Shown: positions 6,758-34,990 of the stretch, in pieces
Position numbering within the stretch: the stretch's first letter is position 1
How the letters are laid out: each line of letters begins with the position of its first letter
NCBI GenBank assembly: GCA_015063385.1
Contig: SVUG01000008.1
Coordinates: forward strand, 1,655 to 65,654
From: Oscillospiraceae bacterium
Lineage (GTDB): Bacteria > Bacillota > Clostridia > Oscillospirales > CAG-272
Length of the DNA: 64,000 bases
Direction of reading: 5' to 3'
The notes under the pieces: generated by a model
Database searches by the model: none
What the model saw: the letters and a program-made list of their open reading frames with translations, nothing else
Told to the model about the DNA's origin: nothing
Position numbers and translations under genes: made by a program

Positions 6758-7717
6758 TTGCACGAGCTGAAAATAGGCAAGAACGACTCAGGTCAAAGGC
6801 TTGATAAATTCATTACCAAGACGCTTGATTTGCCGCCAAGTCTGCTCTATAAATCTATAAGACTTAAAAAAATCAAGGTCAACAGAAAGCGTGCTGAAAA
6901 CAACACCGTTCTCCTTGAGGGAGATACCGTACAATGCTTCCTCGCCGACGAATTTTTTGAGAAAAAAACCAGCAAGAATTCCTTTGAGAGCATAACTCCT
7001 CACCTTGATATAGTTTACGAGGACGAGAATATTATGCTACTCAACAAGCGCCCGGGAATATCGGTTCACGAGGACGAAAACGGCTCGACGAATACGCTTA
7101 TAACGCATATTCAGGCATATCTTTACAAAAAGGGGGAATATAACCCCGATAGTGAGCAGAGCTTTGCCCCTGCCCTATGCAACAGAATTGACCGCAACAC
7201 CGGCGGAATAGTTATCGCCGCGAAAACTGCAGAGGCACTTCGCGTAATGAATGAAAAAATAAAGCTTAGACAGATAGACAAGTTCTACCTCGCTGCCGTA
7301 CACGGTGTTCCATCGAAAAAAAGTGCAACGTTAAGGGCGTATTTACTAAAGGACGATAAGAAAAACATAGTCCGTGTGTACGATAAAAATCCACCGAAGA
7401 ACGCAAAAGAAATTATTACAAAATACACGGTTATTGCAAAAGGAGCTGATAGCTCACTCATTGAGGTTGAGCTGCTCACAGGCAGGACGCATCAGATAAG
7501 AGCACATATGGCACATATCGGACATCCGCTCATCGGCGACGGAAAATACGGAATAAACAAAGACGATAGAGCAAAGGGATATAAATATCAGGCGCTCTAC
7601 TCCTATAAGCTGCGTTTCAGCTTTGACAAGTCAGAGGAAACATCACTCGACTATCTTTCAGGCAAGGAATTCAAAATTCCGAAGAAGGATATCTACTTTA
7701 CAAGCGAGTATTTTTAA
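6758..7717 (+). CDS. RluA/RluC-family pseudouridine synthase with S4 domain
   Basis: QRLDKF S4 motif, NRIDRNTGG, GRTHQIR; TTG start at 6758 fits the GGAGG spacing. Confidence 0.92.
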   Translation: MHELKIGKNDSGQRLDKFITKTLDLPPSLLYKSIRLKKIKVNRKRAENNTVLLEGDTVQCFLADEFFEKKTSKNSFESITPHLDIVYEDENIMLLNKRPGISVHEDENGSTNTLITHIQAYLYKKGEYNPDSEQSFAPALCNRIDRNTGGIVIAAKTAEALRVMNEKIKLRQIDKFYLAAVHGVPSKKSATLRAYLLKDDKKNIVRVYDKNPPKNAKEIITKYTVIAKGADSSLIEVELLTGRTHQIRAHMAHIGHPLIGDGKYGINKDDRAKGYKYQALYSYKLRFSFDKSEETSLDYLSGKEFKIPKKDIYFTSEYF

Positions 7718-7783
7718 TAAAAAACGCAGAAAATGCAAATTTTTGTTTGCAAATTCTGCGTTTTTTGATATTTTTCTACAAAA

Positions 7784-8833
7784 CTACTCGTTAGTTTTTC
7801 TCGCCTTGTACGTATCCTTCTGACTGCATCCTGCACGGCCGCCGCCGGCACACGCACAAGCACAGGCACAAGCGCACGCACAGCCGCTGTGTCCGCTTCT
7901 GTATCCCGAGCCCGAATGAGCACCGTGACTTTCCATATGCTTTTCCTGCGCTCTTCTGTAATGCCTGTTTGGTCTACCGTATATGTACATAGGATGTCCG
8001 TAGCCATAGATAAAGCCTCTGCCTCTATGATAAGAAACAACGGTGTCAAAGCAGAAAATCTCAAAGATGAAAAGTATGATAATAATCGTGACGAACAGCA
8101 CTATAAAGCCTATCCTATCAGACTCAAGGTCATTGGTCACGCTGCCGTCATAGAACGGCTTATATTCAACCGTAGGTGCGTCAAGCTCGTCGTAGGAAAC
8201 GCTCAGCATACGGTATTCTCCCGCATCCATATATCCGTCCCAGATATGCCAGCCGTCCTTAGAGTACTCGGCATTGGAGGATATATCCGAGCCGTCGTCC
8301 CTCCAATAGAAAGCATAGCTTGTAATCGGAGTGGAATTAAACCAGCCCGGTACGAACTCATAGAAATAATCCCCATCCCTCTCACAGAGCATACTGCCCT
8401 GATTTATGGTAATGTCAAATTCAAGCGTTTCACCCTTATGATAATCTCTGTCAAAATAAAGGTCTACGTGGCACTCGCCATAGACGTCGTTATATTTTTC
8501 AACCCTTGATATATTGTCTGAATAATCAAGCACTGTATAATCGGGATTTGCAATACCGAGATACACGAAGGTAAGCGGTTCGTCCGGGTCCAGCGGAGTC
8601 CAGGTAAAGCTGTATTCAATATCAAGCGTTCCGTCATCTCTGGGACTTACGTAAACCTCGTATTTATCTATTACGTCCTGCGGCGTGGGCTTGTAAAAGA
8701 TTATTCCCAGCACACACAAGAGCTGAAGGACAATCAGTACGGCAAGCAGGATAACCTTTCCCTTTGGAAAGGTTCTTTTTCTTTTTATTGCCTTTTCGGA
8801 GAAATCGTATTTTACGTCACTGCTTTTACTCAT
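7784..8833 (-). CDS. Two-TM membrane protein with extracellular domain and C-terminal (CA)6GGGRAGC tail
   Basis: TM near the N-terminus and at about aa 240-262; tail SGCACACACACACAGGGRAGCSQKD; start overlaps the rSAM stop (ATGAGTAA). Confidence 0.85.
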   Translation of the reverse strand: MSKSSDVKYDFSEKAIKRKRTFPKGKVILLAVLIVLQLLCVLGIIFYKPTPQDVIDKYEVYVSPRDDGTLDIEYSFTWTPLDPDEPLTFVYLGIANPDYTVLDYSDNISRVEKYNDVYGECHVDLYFDRDYHKGETLEFDITINQGSMLCERDGDYFYEFVPGWFNSTPITSYAFYWRDDGSDISSNAEYSKDGWHIWDGYMDAGEYRMLSVSYDELDAPTVEYKPFYDGSVTNDLESDRIGFIVLFVTIIIILFIFEIFCFDTVVSYHRGRGFIYGYGHPMYIYGRPNRHYRRAQEKHMESHGAHSGSGYRSGHSGCACACACACACAGGGRAGCSQKDTYKARKTNE

Positions 8834-31281: not shown

Positions 31282-32136
31282 TCACTTCGCCTCCTTCTTA
31301 AAGAGATTGCAGGCAGACTCGTATGCGTGACGCTCGAAATCTCTGTACATATTGCCTCGTGACATAGCCTCGTCAAAATCGACCTCGTAGCCGTTGAAGT
31401 CGGGGCCGTCAACGCAGGCGAACTTGGTCACACGCTTGCCGTCAACGTTCAGGGTAAGTCGGCAGCCGCCGCACATTCCCGTGCCGTCTATCATTATGGG
31501 GTTCATAGACACGTCGCAGGGGATACCGGTAGGACGGGTAGCCTCGACGACGAATTTCATCATAATGAGCGGGCCGATGGTGATAACCTTGTCAAATTTT
31601 CTGCCCGCAGCGAACATCTCGTTAAGGGGTACGCAGACGTTGCCCTCTCTGCCGTAAGAGCCGTCGTCAGTCATAACGAAAAGCTCGTCGGAGCATGCAC
31701 GGAACTCGTCCTCAAGGATAACGAGGTCGCTGTTTCTGAATCCGATTATAGACGTCACGCGAGCACCGCGTGCCTTGAGTGCCTCTGCCACGGGAAGTGC
31801 AATAGCACAGCCGACACCGCCGCCAACTATACATACGTCGGTGAGCCCGTCAAGGTGCGTGGGCAGACCAAGAGGACCTGCGAAATCGGATATGTACTCG
31901 CCCTCGTTCTTATGATTTAATTTTTCGGTTGTAGCACCGACTATCTGGAATATTATTTTTACCGTACCTGCTTCCCTATCGTAGCCTGCAACGGTAAGGG
32001 GTATTCTCTCGCCATCCTCGTCCACACGGAGAATGATAAACTGACCGGGTTCAGCCTTCTTTGCAACGAGCGGAGCTTCAATATCCATCATAGTGACGGT
32101 AGGATTAAGCGACCTTTTGCTAACTATTCTGTACAT
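31282..32136 (-). CDS. nfnA: NADH-dependent reduced ferredoxin:NADP oxidoreductase small subunit
   Basis: PGQFIILR..ERIPLT, DGTGMCGGCR, FACVDGPDF. Confidence 0.85.
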   Translation of the reverse strand: MYRIVSKRSLNPTVTMMDIEAPLVAKKAEPGQFIILRVDEDGERIPLTVAGYDREAGTVKIIFQIVGATTEKLNHKNEGEYISDFAGPLGLPTHLDGLTDVCIVGGGVGCAIALPVAEALKARGARVTSIIGFRNSDLVILEDEFRACSDELFVMTDDGSYGREGNVCVPLNEMFAAGRKFDKVITIGPLIMMKFVVEATRPTGIPCDVSMNPIMIDGTGMCGGCRLTLNVDGKRVTKFACVDGPDFNGYEVDFDEAMSRGNMYRDFERHAYESACNLFKKEAK

Positions 32137-32325
32137 TTTGCCTCGTTTCGTGTCGTTTTGCCATATTTTTTGAGTGCAACGCACCTAAAAAAGCTAACGA
32201 CCTCTTTATTTTACATACGTTAATTATACTACTAAAGCCAAACTTTTGCAATAGCTTTTTGTGTTTTTTTAGATTGCTTTAACACATTTTTCACTTTTAA
32301 CGCTTTTTATTAAAATCAAGCATAA

Positions 32326-32434
32326 GAAAAGAGCGATTTGACTAATCAAACCACCCTGTTTTTATTTAGTTAGAATTTCTTGTTTTTCAAGGTTTCCATA
32401 GATTCGGCAATACAGTCAACATGAAGTATTTATT
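32326..32434 (-). repeat. Array repeat R4: cotJC-tail copy plus hairpin, no promoter
   Basis: Tail 32370-32429 encodes ILHVDCIAESMETLKNKKF*; hairpin cagggtggtttga-ttag-tcaaatcgctctttt. Confidence 0.85.
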
Positions 32435-32440
32435 GGTGAG

Positions 32441-32710
32441 TTATTTGCATATAGCCTCAATCAAAATAATGACCGCAAAAACTGCCAGAGTAAACAATAT
32501 CGTTATCAAAAATGAAAAAAGTATATTCAACTTATAAGAAAATGACGTTTTTCTATCCAGAAAATAAAGCGATGTCAAAAAAGCCACACACAAAATTAGC
32601 ATTGAACCAAGTCCAACCAAAAATTCTTCAGTACCACCAGGGCTTGGATTTCCAACCATTGCATCAAGATTACCTGCCAAACATTCTAATATGTATTTCA
32701 CAGTTTTCAT
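32441..32710 (-). CDS. Cassette 3: small two-TM hypothetical protein (89 aa)
   Basis: AGGAGG RBS before ATG at 32710; two hydrophobic segments. Confidence 0.75.
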   Translation of the reverse strand: MKTVKYILECLAGNLDAMVGNPSPGGTEEFLVGLGSMLILCVAFLTSLYFLDRKTSFSYKLNILFSFLITILFTLAVFAVIILIEAICK

Positions 32711-32735
32711 GTAAGCTAACTCCTCCTTTTTTATT

Positions 32736-32826
32736 ATTATATCACAGCAATACGAAAAAGTAAAGAGGACGATTTGATTTCTCAAACCGCCCTATTTTAT
32801 TAGCTTTACAAATAGAAGTATTATTC
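32736..32826 (-). repeat. Array repeat R3: hairpin plus promoter, tail mostly deleted
   Basis: Hairpin 32765-32798; TTTACT(32759-64)-17-TATAAT(32736-41); residual AATAATACTTC. Confidence 0.8.
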
Positions 32827-32858
32827 TCATATTTTGCGCCTCATAAATAGGCTAAACT

Positions 32859-33368
32859 TTATTTATCGATATTAAAATACTGGGATTCTAACGAATCGAT
32901 ATAATTATTGCCAACACGACCTATGCATTCAATAAACACGCCATTAGCATCGTATATGCAACAGTCACCGTAATATTTCGTATCACCTGTGTCGTCAGTA
33001 TAAACGCAATTACTTAAAACAACCATATTGCCGTTGCTTTGGTACAAAATCAGCGTTTTTCCAATCGGCTCGTTTAAGGCGCTGGCATAATATAGATATC
33101 CTCTATCTGATACATCTTTCACAACATCTTCAATCTTGGAGTCATCAAGAGTTGCTATCAAGCTAACTTTGCTAAAATCAAAGGTTGGCTTTTTATCACC
33201 TTCGATATTTCGAATCATTTTGGGATTTTCATTTTCATAATTAACTAATTCGATTTTTGTCGTATTAGCTAATAAAGCTTCAGCATTCAATAGATGCGTT
33301 GCAGGATCACAGCTTACAAGCGTAAGTATGAACACAAGCACCGATACCAGCAAAATTAACCTTTTCAT
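32859..33368 (-). CDS. Cassette 2: hypothetical lipoprotein
   Basis: Lipobox LVSC; GAGGGG RBS; AT-rich. Confidence 0.8.
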   Translation of the reverse strand: MKRLILLVSVLVFILTLVSCDPATHLLNAEALLANTTKIELVNYENENPKMIRNIEGDKKPTFDFSKVSLIATLDDSKIEDVVKDVSDRGYLYYASALNEPIGKTLILYQSNGNMVVLSNCVYTDDTGDTKYYGDCCIYDANGVFIECIGRVGNNYIDSLESQYFNIDK

Positions 33369-33416
33369 ACAAGCCCCTCAAATGAAAGTTTATTGGTTAG
33401 TTTCCTAACCACCTTT

Positions 33417-33550
33417 AGTATATCACAAAATTCCACAAAAGTAAATAGGGCGATTTGATTTCTCAAACCGCCCTATTTTATTTAGTTAGAATTTCTTGTT
33501 TTTCAAGATCTCCATAGTTTCGCCAAAACAGTCAACATGAAGTATTTATT
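33417..33550 (-). repeat. Array repeat R2: cotJC-tail copy plus hairpin plus promoter
   Basis: Tail 33486-33545 encodes ILHVDCFGETMEILKNKKF*; hairpin about 33443-33479; TTTACT(33440-45)-17-TATACT(33417-22). Confidence 0.85.
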
Positions 33551-34328
33551 CTACATCATTTGCTTTCTTTATCATTTCGTGTGTAATAAAAGCCAAGCGA
33601 CACTCGTGGCACAAATTAAGGTCAGAGTCAAAATGTCCGCCGCATTTCTCGATTTCGCCACTGCACTTCGGGCAGGATGTTAAAACTTTATTGTTCTTCT
33701 CAAATTCATACCAACCACCAATGGGATTGCCGAGAAGGTAGTAAACAGGTTTTCCCACCTTTTTCTCAAGCTCGGTGCATATATCCATACCGGCTTTATT
33801 AAGCTGTGATTTATAGTCAATAATCTGTCGTTTTGTAAATCTGTCAGACAAACCGTCCATCCACAAAGTATCGACAGCCTTATATATAGATTGGAAATCT
33901 AAAATAGACAAATGCTCTTCTTCTTGATACAAATACGGGATTCTAATTAAAGGTATCTCCTTGCCACAATCTCCGCAAATAATTGGACTTGAACTGTCGT
34001 CAGGATTTATCGCCAATATGTAATAGCTATGATCATCACAATGGCAGCAATCGGTGGAGCTTGGTTCATCGCAAATTATTTCGAAGCTTATCTCAAAATC
34101 CGCAATTTCTTTGCGGATGTAGTCGTTATAATATTTACTGTCTAATGAATCGTCATCGGTTGTAATTGTTGTAGCAATAAAATATTCATCGTGAGTTTCA
34201 ATAATCCATTCTTTGATTATCTGACCGTTCAGATATAGCATATGTAAAATGCTTTCAATCTTTTCCGCAATATTCTCTTTTCTTTCTTCTATAAGCGGCT
34301 TAAACGTAATCTTTGCAATTTTGTACAT
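33546..34328 (-). CDS. Cassette 1: DUF2310-like Zn-ribbon protein
   Basis: NGQI, PIICGDCG..IPL, PVYYLL, CPKC, CHECRL. Confidence 0.75.
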   Translation of the reverse strand: MYKIAKITFKPLIEERKENIAEKIESILHMLYLNGQIIKEWIIETHDEYFIATTITTDDDSLDSKYYNDYIRKEIADFEISFEIICDEPSSTDCCHCDDHSYYILAINPDDSSSPIICGDCGKEIPLIRIPYLYQEEEHLSILDFQSIYKAVDTLWMDGLSDRFTKRQIIDYKSQLNKAGMDICTELEKKVGKPVYYLLGNPIGGWYEFEKNNKVLTSCPKCSGEIEKCGGHFDSDLNLCHECRLAFITHEMIKKANDVE

Positions 34329-34362
34329 AAAAAGCTCCTTTCCATATCATTCTTTCATAATC

Positions 34363-34435
34363 ATTATATCACACCCTAACGAAAAAGTAAATAGGACGAT
34401 TTGACTAATCAAACCGCCCTGTTTTTATTTAGTTA
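34363..34435 (-). repeat. Array repeat R1: hairpin plus promoter immediately after the cotJC stop
   Basis: cagggcggtttga-ttag-tcaaatcgtcctat; TTTACT(34386-91)-17-TATAAT(34363-68) with TG extension. Confidence 0.85.
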
Positions 34436-34990
34436 GAATTTCTTATCTCGTAAGATATTCATAGCTTCTCCGAAGCGCTGGAAGTGTACTATTTCGCGCT
34501 GGCGGAGGAATTTGATGGCGTCGTTGACGTCGGGGTCGTCGGAGAGGCGGAGAATGTTGTCGTACATCGCTCTCGCCTTCTGCTCAGCGGCGAGGTCCTC
34601 GTGAATGCTCGCAAGAGCGTCCTCTTTAGATGCTATTGCCATTGCGTTAAAGGGTACGCCTGCTGCCGAGGAGGGATAAATACCCGCTCCGTGATCAACG
34701 TAATACTTATCGAAGCCACCCGCTATAATTTCGTCCGGGGTGAGGTTTCTAGTCAGCTGATAAACAATCGAGCCAACCATTTCCATATGACCAAGCTCCT
34801 CCGAGCCAATGTCAGTCAGAACACCGATAACTTTATCGTCGGGCATCGTGTAGCGCTGGTTAAGATAACGCATTGATGCAGCCAGTTCACCGTCAGGTCC
34901 TCCGAGGGCGCTTATGATAATACCCGCAAGGCGAGGATTGGGCCTTGCTATTTTTACGGGGTGCTGAAGCTTTTTCTCATAAATCCACAT
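34433..34990 (-). CDS. cotJC: Spore coat protein CotJC (Mn-catalase family)
   Basis: MWIYEKKLQHPV, GGPDGELAASMRY, EELGHMEM, REIVHFQRFGE. Confidence 0.95.
   Translation of the reverse strand: MWIYEKKLQHPVKIARPNPRLAGIIISALGGPDGELAASMRYLNQRYTMPDDKVIGVLTDIGSEELGHMEMVGSIVYQLTRNLTPDEIIAGGFDKYYVDHGAGIYPSSAAGVPFNAMAIASKEDALASIHEDLAAEQKARAMYDNILRLSDDPDVNDAIKFLRQREIVHFQRFGEAMNILRDKKF

Follow-up and report, generated by a model that had tools for sequence, protein, structure and literature searches.

To our knowledge, the exchange of genes in accessory slots is documented mainly for the integrons of Proteobacteria and, elsewhere, for much larger islands. The attC sites of integrons are long, imperfect hairpins with R and L boxes and unpaired bases. 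In Neisseria, minimal mobile elements hold differing genes in one slot, carry no mobility gene and move by homologous recombination in conserved flanks; at the 3' end of fda in Streptococcus thermophilus, recombinase-less elements bounded by att sites accumulate and can be picked up by an incoming element. Staphylococci carry composite islands of the staphylococcal cassette chromosome (SCC) at rlmH (orfX), where tandem units sit at the 3' end of one gene and that end is repeated at their boundaries (PMC13739063, bioRxiv 10.1101/336396). The present study concerns a locus that amounts in outcome to an integron or an SCC composite island, yet lacks the features that define an integron. It lies in a 64,000-nucleotide stretch of DNA (hereafter the window) from the Oscillospiraceae bacterium of GenBank assembly GCA_015063385.1 (contig SVUG01000008.1, positions 1,655 to 65,654), between the gene cotJC and an nfnA-like gene, and consists of single genes framed by a shared junction module, J. 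Anchored behind cotJC, these single-gene cassettes form a hypervariable array that one genus of uncultured gut Clostridia shares; it is probably moved by homologous recombination at portable arms, and J was probably seeded by the scar of a serine recombinase. A search of the full-text literature, supplementary files lying outside its scope, found no description of such arrays.

All positions below follow the numbering of the whole window, and G000 denotes the window's own genome assembly (1.69 Mb, 88% complete). The genes of the region all lie on the minus strand and follow one another in transcription order as cotJA, cotJB, cotJC, genes A, B and C, nfnA and nfnB. The anchor gene cotJC (34433..34990, minus strand) is an intact open reading frame (ORF) of 185 aa matching Pfam Mn_catalase (E 1.2e-52), and the identities of cotJB and cotJA were confirmed; the conserved distal boundary is the nfnA-like gene (31282..32139, minus strand), which has its own promoter at 32223-32251. 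The intervening segment, 32326-34492, is made up of three AT-rich, co-oriented single-gene units containing gene A (33546..34328), gene B (32859..33368) and gene C (32441..32713), all on the minus strand, and G+C falls to ~0.29-0.40 over 32200-34300 against ~0.50-0.57 for cotJC and nfnAB. A first-pass annotation, made from the sequence of the window, had described an array of self-expressing single-gene units at this gene end. Its description of the sequence proved accurate in every particular, self-expression being read from predicted promoters, and needs one addition, a decayed tail remnant in junction R2 that we recognised by eye. The module J measures roughly 130-250 nt and comprises, along transcription, an 18-mer that we call X, a copy of the cotJC 3' end, a terminator hairpin with a 12-bp stem and an extended -10 promoter whose -35 falls within the T-tract of the terminator.

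The hairpin occurs four times, always on the minus strand, as repeat family D3, and each copy is called as a terminator. R4, with a 12-bp stem and the loop TTAG (34393..34420; repeat copy 34390-34425), is the terminator of the cotJ operon; R3 forms up to 16 pairs around the loop GAAA (33443..33478; repeat copy 33444-33479), R2 also has the loop GAAA (32766..32793; repeat copy 32763-32798), and R1, with the loop TTAG (32330..32357; repeat copy 32327-32362), forms the terminal junction and is the only copy without a junction promoter. The pairing of outer and inner copies by their loops on the transcribed strand, and the lack of a promoter at the last hairpin, are thus as first reported; that this hairpin is the original chromosomal terminator, as the annotation had expected, is conjecture. 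The four copies are 78-89% identical to the reference copy, and a 23-nt pattern drawn from them has four exact matches on the plus strand of the window (0.00 expected from shuffles); R3, being nearly palindromic, also accounts on the opposite strand for a fifth match, which has 2 mismatches. Because the pattern occurs at this locus only in the entire G000 assembly, the hairpin is not a generic terminator, a finding that would have refuted the reading of the annotation. All four copies show the G+C-rich stem-loop and T-tract of an intrinsic terminator on the transcribed strand, and they are among 7 terminator-like sites, compared with 1.5 +/- 1.4 in shuffles. In an alignment of 41 copies (37 distinct rows), 97.3% of cells pair and the loops measure 4-7 nt. 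Two pairs are mostly G.U, so that the hairpin would form on the sense strand only, and covariation is weak, with only 1 pair changing on both sides. The Rfam search returned no family at its gathering score and four weak matches at chance level.

A TG-preceded promoter lies 3' of R4 (TTTACT-17-TATAAT, 34363..34391, minus strand, with its -35 within the terminator T-tract), of R3 (TTTACT-17-TATACT, 33417..33445, minus strand) and of R2 (TTTACT-17-TATAAT, 32736..32764, minus strand), giving one for each of the three window cassettes. Across relatives, 35 junction promoters match TTTAC(T/A)-17-TA(T/C)A(A/C)T with a TGTG(G/A) extension, and cassette-specific sequence begins immediately 3' of their -10 box. 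The promoter that the first-pass annotation placed in each unit is therefore present, but it is part of the shared junction and not of the cassette. We suggest that the junction terminator insulates each gene from its neighbour and that the junction promoter would express it. The promoters appear to be of the sigma-A, vegetative type; the proposed tie to sporulation thus holds for position, next to cotJC, but not for cassette expression.

A 75-nt tail family (D1) has three members, at 32360-32434, at 33476-33550 and at the real cotJC end, 34423-34497; identity is 93% between the two tail copies and 67% between these and the real end. The copy behind gene A begins with an exact X (33528..33545, minus strand) directly 3' of the stop codon and continues as core and cotJC tail (33486..33527, minus strand), reading through FGETMEILKNKKF to a stop. 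Behind gene C, an exact X (32412..32429, minus strand), 14 nt past the stop codon, is followed by core and tail (32370..32411, minus strand) that read through IAESMETLKNKKF to a stop. Junction R2 has no full tail copy; the remnant noted above (32801..32823, minus strand; by eye, with no statistics) retains 8 nt from the start of X together with a stretch resembling the core, and has lost the remainder of X and the tail. Within cotJC itself, alignments of junctions with cotJC ends place the recombination core at the codons RFGEA (34460..34476, minus strand), partly palindromic in relatives, and it is only from the core, GGCGAAGC (elsewhere written GGCGAAGCTATG), that the junction copies clearly match cotJC. 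The short C-terminal tail of the window cotJC, which ends in AMNILRDKKF and a stop, was compared with the tails of relatives. We considered whether tail and X are read through as a C-terminal extension of the cassette proteins and rejected this, since the frames split 12/15/19.

The genus was represented by 213 species genomes, all of them metagenome bins in which mis-assembly across repeats of 100-250 nt is possible. Homologues of cotJC were present in 35 of 41 related genomes, and the intervals 3' of the gene were then compared. With at most 2 mismatches, X occurs at 67 places in 40 of the 213 genomes (7 for a reversed control pattern), and its matches are clustered and co-oriented. It adjoins cotJC and/or nfnA in 25 of 30 genomes inspected, while the stretch fetched around X contained neither gene in G170, G161, G052, G079 and G188. 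The synteny glyA-cotJABC-array-nfnAB is kept across the genus, and 20 mapped arrays show a regular order of gene, X, core GGCGAAGCTATG, variable cotJC-type tail with stop, big hairpin, -35, -10 and the next gene, although junctions without X exist (R2 in the window, several in G020). Between one and about five cassettes make up an array, and their number, their order and the genes themselves vary among genomes. G013 has just 240 bp from cotJC to nfnA and is an empty site; the gap measures 1.5 kb in G002, where it contains one GC-rich gene, against 2.2 kb for the window, 3.5 kb for G020 and 6.5 kb for G023. G019 provides a second empty site as the counterpart of the occupied G021. When the co-oriented ORFs of the 20 arrays were clustered, 24 families occurred in at least two genomes and 51 were singletons, although a small number of those counted are spurious ORFs or genes near nfnA that are not cassettes; shared families stand at differing positions between genomes, family F0 doing so in 5 genomes. 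Variable content between constant junctions and empty-site alleles, both anticipated by the annotation, are thus found in relatives.

Beyond the genus, a 24-nt pattern spanning X and core returned 29 stretches among 185,579 species genomes, all of them metagenome bins labelled as Eubacteriales, Clostridia or Acutalibacteraceae bacterium, and those titles that name a source give goat, yak or roe-deer gut, or faeces. The same 24-mer was not found in a viral contig collection, so no phage vector is identified. Six feces-metagenome runs contain at least 0.79 of the sampled words, but their contigs break exactly at the repeats and none joins across a cassette; they are therefore uninformative for or against excision or strain-level variation. 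Individual loci show further rearrangement. At G161 (L102, ~8389-9100), one cassette with full junctions stands beside a mere fragment of the cotJC end, neither cotJC nor nfnA lies within 14 kb, and homology ends a few bases into the core past X; the locus may be a relocated or truncated array. In G061 (L095, ~7058-7933), an opposite-strand ORF of 291 aa, whose start looks transposase-like by eye, lies directly 3' of cotJC and seems inserted into the first junction. Several relatives (L092, L093, L098, L038 and L132) have an AraC/GyrI-like regulator between array and nfnA that is not present in the window; its Pfam matches include Cass2, 'integron-associated effector binding protein'. The junctions of some relatives (L036 2060-2145 of G023, L097 of G054, L090 of G096) also contain, between tail and big hairpin, tandem small G+C-rich hairpins, each followed by a constant 7-8-mer, namely CAATTCAT in G023, G054, G104 and G152 and AACTTCAC in G003, G096, G107 and G171. 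In several genomes such runs occur at dozens of loci on both strands, and G000 has none. We rejected them as a part of the array system because they are dispersed genome-wide and absent from G000; they have invaded the array junctions of relatives.

To ask how cassettes came to be shared, their nucleotide identity was compared with that of nfnA, nfnB, cotJC or glyA in the same two genomes. Families F1, F7, F9, F16, F17, F18 and F23, judged non-cassette or spurious, had been set aside in advance; of 38 genome pairs, 6 had no nucleotide match and 3 no shared core gene, leaving 29. The cassette is more similar than the flanking core genes in 26 of these 29 pairs (median 84.3% vs 74.7%), which indicates that cassettes move between species. 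For instance, the F0 cassettes of G096 and G107 are 97.8% identical over 558 nt while the core genes reach 77-79.5%; the F12 cassettes of G152 and G157 are 95.7% identical over 276 nt (core genes 72-74%), and those of F15 in G064 and G183 are 100% identical over 459 nt (core genes 84.5-87%). Judged by these comparisons of sequence, transfer between species has clearly taken place. In the recent cases its boundaries are given by the near-identical tract. The right end of that tract fits the core, where a recombinase would cross over; the left end lies not at the upstream core but at the hairpin in F0 and F12, and in F13 at the -35. In each of these three pairs the two genomes carry different tails ahead of the hairpin. 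A crossover at a recombinase site would carry the upstream tail along; since the tails differ, homologous exchange at the junction is favoured. Tail type and mini-hairpin runs likewise follow the genome and not the cassette, as expected if cassettes are replaced between two conserved arms. The occupied site of G021 adds a crossover elsewhere. Its single lipoprotein cassette has a long-type cotJC tail on either side, in direct repeat. Up to the last two codons the functional tail resembles that of the resident, and the displaced copy is foreign on the left and resident on the right. We read this arrangement as the product of one crossover in the ~75 nt over which the tails are homologous, close to the final codons and away from the RFGEA site.

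Serine-recombinase elements are also found at cotJC in this lineage. Immediately 3' of cassette stop codons, X is the most conserved piece of the junction, and in G096 and G123 the stop codon of a 525-aa large serine recombinase gene abuts an X-like sequence, after which come core, tail, hairpin, promoter and further cassettes. In G123, cotJC is interrupted at the codons RFGEA and then reads GEAIQSG and a stop; ~8.1 kb of cargo and the recombinase gene follow, and then the X-like arm and the displaced cotJC end. The element-side arms of G123 are imperfect inverted repeats, identical at 17 of 21 positions as counted by eye, and the consensus of cassette X matches them at 16 of 21 positions, as expected of an attachment site. 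The proximal ~20 nt of what the first-pass annotation had called a copy of the cotJC tail, that is X, match the element-side arm better than they match cotJC; the designation stands from the core onward. We therefore prefer to read X as the probable element-side half of an attR scar, with unambiguous homology to cotJC starting at the core. In G108, too, a 3' fragment of cotJC is adjoined at the RFGEA codons by a recombinase fragment, which is 45% identical. Further splits of cotJC occur at residues ~30 (G033, L054, with an insert of ~3.2 kb), 58-63 (G123, L124) and 133-136 (G007, L048/L049; G108, L093), each with a large serine recombinase gene beside the 3' fragment, and G123 has two elements in one cotJC. 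Taken together, recombinase genes stand beside cotJC breakpoints at residues ~30, 58, 133 and 171, and by this evidence cotJC appears to be a repeated integration target. The breakpoints agree with a passage, citing Abe et al. 2013, in which cotJC is given as a locus often used for integration (bioRxiv 10.1101/2021.11.22.469490).

We rejected the idea that the recombinase regularly accompanies the arrays: only 14 of the 213 genomes have homologues at E <= 1e-20, and close copies are confined to G096 and G123. None of the 20 mapped arrays has a co-localised recombinase gene except the serine recombinase of G096, and the enzyme found at the RFGEA codons of cotJC in G096 and G123 is absent from G000 and from most array-bearing genomes. 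In the G000 assembly, 88% complete, no Resolvase-domain gene was found, and its five Phage_integrase-domain genes are all on contigs other than the window's. The annotation was thus right that no recombinase is nearby, and its suggestion that one might stand next to cotJC in relatives is borne out.

We propose a series of linked steps. A serine-recombinase element would have integrated at the cotJC codons RFGEA and left an attR-like junction ahead of the native downstream region, giving rise to J. The conserved blocks of J would then serve as portable homology arms, hairpin and promoter to the left of the gene and X and core to its right, at which homologous recombination of the RecA type may swap cassettes for those of other species. 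Recombination between copies of J could likewise loop out or duplicate cassettes and re-insert circles in Campbell fashion, and cassette turnover would need no dedicated integrase. Of the two mechanisms that the first-pass annotation had offered, homology with the cotJC tail and terminator is thus better supported, by the transfer boundaries and by the crossover in G021, than a recombinase acting in trans. Several observations weigh against this model. Arms of ~35 and ~60 nt make a poor RecA substrate between species that are ~25% diverged. No circular or deleted forms were seen, although contigs assembled from the public runs are interrupted at the repeats. In some comparisons of cassette with core, the local alignment covers no more than 115-128 nt and the identity is inflated; boundaries are placed no finer than the conserved blocks, and the informative cases are three pairs and one occupied/empty pair. 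The genomes being metagenome bins, mis-assembly at the 100-250-nt repeats could distort order or copy number. Finally, the mean column identity of X is 0.92 against 0.37-0.77 at promoter spacer positions 5-11 of the same modules, and conservation above that of the spacer suggests a protein-binding site still in use; alternatively, selection on the arms for continued mobility may account for it.

The conservation of X is the starting point for an alternative, which we consider possible but doubtful, in which a large serine recombinase targeting cotJC shuttles cassettes site-specifically by canonical reactions only. In the donor, attL would recombine with a distal, attR-like X/core, so that neighbouring cassettes are excised along with the element; the attP of the element would then integrate into the recipient cotJC, and its later exit by attL and the first attR would leave a cotJC with a fresh tail, a cassette and an X/core scar. 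Such traffic would resemble that of ccr-less pseudo-SCC elements at rlmH, or of cis-mobilisable elements accreted beside an integrative element. It would explain why X, the most conserved part of the junction, matches the arms of the recombinase site and keeps the positions common to both, and why its left edge is sharp and stands off from the core by ~22 nt, about the length of an attachment half-site. The intermediate that it predicts, an element at cotJC followed directly by X/core and further cassettes, is present in G096 and G123; arrays hold attB-like and attR-like sites but never an inverted X (equivalent to attL), and the recombinase is rare (close copies in 2 genomes, and the 45%-identical copy of G108), as would suit an element that departs once its cargo is delivered. 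What speaks against it is the position of the boundaries, since the upstream tail should travel with the cassette and the shared tract instead starts at the hairpin (F0, F12) or the -35 (F13), and the G021 crossover is not at the RFGEA site. X-less junctions also exist, G000 and most array-bearing genomes have no cognate recombinase, and no excision products were observed in the public-run contigs, which end at the repeats. Tentatively, the locus might on this account represent integron-analogous gene capture in Gram-positive anaerobes, with a recombinase that comes and goes, an integrase-less array left behind and X conserved as the binding site.

The coincidence of the left transfer boundaries with the hairpin can be read differently again, as the mark of a dedicated enzyme that inserts cassettes there as at a DNA site, for example a Xer-type tyrosine recombinase or an HUH or IS200-like transposase. 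The hairpin is indeed strand-asymmetric and highly conserved, and five tyrosine recombinase genes lie elsewhere in the genome; yet hairpin and T-tract are fully explained as an intrinsic terminator fused to a -35, the G.U pairs point to structure at the RNA level, covariation is confined to the single pair changing on both sides, and the 20 mapped arrays have no recombinase gene besides the serine recombinase of G096, so that we consider this unlikely. Descent without transfer, in which an old array is inherited vertically, species differ by gene loss only and the repeats are decaying duplications, would agree with the synteny kept from glyA to nfnAB. It is contradicted by the 26 of 29 pairs in which cassettes are much more similar than the flanking core, by the 51 singleton families and by a cassette G+C of ~0.30-0.38 against ~0.5 in the flanks, and it seems to us highly improbable. 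Most remote of all is a true integron remnant, a cluster of attC sites lacking an integrase (CALIN), although the likeness is real: short, AT-rich, co-oriented cassettes of mostly unknown function, hairpin-forming repeats between them, content that is combinatorial between relatives and no integrase. By inspection, made without an attC model, the hairpins have near-perfect 12-bp stems, loops of 4-7 nt and a following T-tract, and show neither R and L boxes nor unpaired bases. Moreover, integron cassettes are promoterless, whereas an extended -10 promoter is predicted before all three window cassettes and at the 35 junctions of relatives, and each junction includes the repeated 3' end of a gene alongside an apparent half-site of a serine recombinase. 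Neither the contig of the window nor any of the 20 mapped arrays has a Phage_integrase-domain gene. With no IntI, no attI and no attC architecture, and in a Gram-positive anaerobe, the sites are not integron-like, and this part of the first-pass annotation falls; its interpretation as a whole is partly supported and, with the corrections given here, largely right.

The array also shares features with the remaining systems. With SCC it has in common tandem units at the 3' end of a conserved gene, each bounded by a repeat of that end, and in both a large serine recombinase accompanies some units and is missing from others, among them the ccr-less pseudo-SCC (PMC13739063, bioRxiv 10.1101/336396). 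The units here, however, are single genes of 0.4-1 kb and SCC elements measure 10-60 kb; array junctions come with terminator and promoter as one complete module, most arrays have no recombinase, and the mapped breakpoints favour homologous over site-specific exchange. As in the minimal mobile elements, differing genes occupy a slot, no mobility gene is present and crossovers fall in conserved flanks, but these flanks are a short, portable, repeated junction and not host genes. Because the flank is a portable repeat, slots in tandem can multiply and the array can grow. The S. thermophilus fda system differs in its tyrosine integrase, its multi-gene elements and its lack of a promoter/terminator junction. 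The cotJC locus, with a serine recombinase beside it in relatives, also recalls the intervening elements of sporulation genes (skin, SP-beta in spsM, gin in gerE), a minimal example of which is described in PMC5595907. Intervening elements interrupt a reading frame and carry a recombinase, as found at cotJC in G007, G033, G108 and G123, whereas in the window cotJC is an intact 185-aa ORF, there is no recombinase, no excision is required and the cassettes stand behind the gene. Phage morons resemble the cassettes as autonomous promoter-gene-terminator units with a G+C below their surroundings, but the units here are chromosomal, arrayed and framed by one shared junction.

The contents of the array are varied. 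Gene A encodes a 260-aa DUF2310 Zn-ribbon protein (Pfam DUF2310, E 7.7e-36) whose counterpart, with 81% aa identity, is the first cassette of G043. Gene B encodes 169 aa with a lipoprotein-like signal, read from the translation only, and has homologues directly 3' of cotJC in G021 (51%) and within the array of G156 (56%); no Pfam or PADLOC family was found for it, and the Protein Atlas gave only unnamed Bacillota clusters. Gene C encodes a small hydrophobic protein of ~90 aa, with two transmembrane segments judged from the translation only, and no Pfam family in the scan. A small hairpin, GGTTAG gaaa CTAACC (33389-33411), within the 5' leader of gene B adjoins a 14-nt match to the sequence just upstream of X behind gene C (family D5). 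In relatives, leader sequences also resemble one another between cassette families, as do those of F21 and of the G067 cassette in second position. Across the arrays, Pfam names include DUF2310, SF0329, DUF3885, DMP19-like (twice), DUF4240, a weak Imm33, Abi_alpha, Nmad3, HTH_3, Acyl_transf_3, LRR, DUF2812 and DUF2691, and about half of the 40 proteins scanned have no Pfam family. PADLOC matched one of 10 cassette proteins, the Abi_alpha protein of G152, to the candidate defence family PDC-S47, and none of the three window cassette proteins. By sequence resemblance, some cassettes may thus encode immunity, abortive-infection or DNA-mimic proteins. This defence- or immunity-like look parallels integron cassettes, since defence systems are reported in those of chromosomal integrons (bioRxiv 10.1101/2024.07.02.601686). 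The F8 genes of G097 (L094) and G054 (L097) share ~190 nt of their 3' ends at 92% identity and have unrelated 5' halves, which suggests that cassette genes can themselves be mosaics.

The finding suggests how a cassette array could be born from a serine-recombinase element that has a sporulation gene as its target. One module of ~130-250 nt unites recombination arm, terminator and promoter, and could be a natural template for modular expression arrays. If the shuttle of cassettes by a cotJC-targeting recombinase were true, this would be an ever-renewed, integrase-less array whose junctions supply terminator and promoter. Uncultured gut Clostridia keep one to about five slots behind cotJC, with predicted insulating terminators and constitutive promoters, the contents of which are exchanged across species, and the module that frames these slots bears on the spread of immunity, abortive-infection and unknown-function genes in gut communities.

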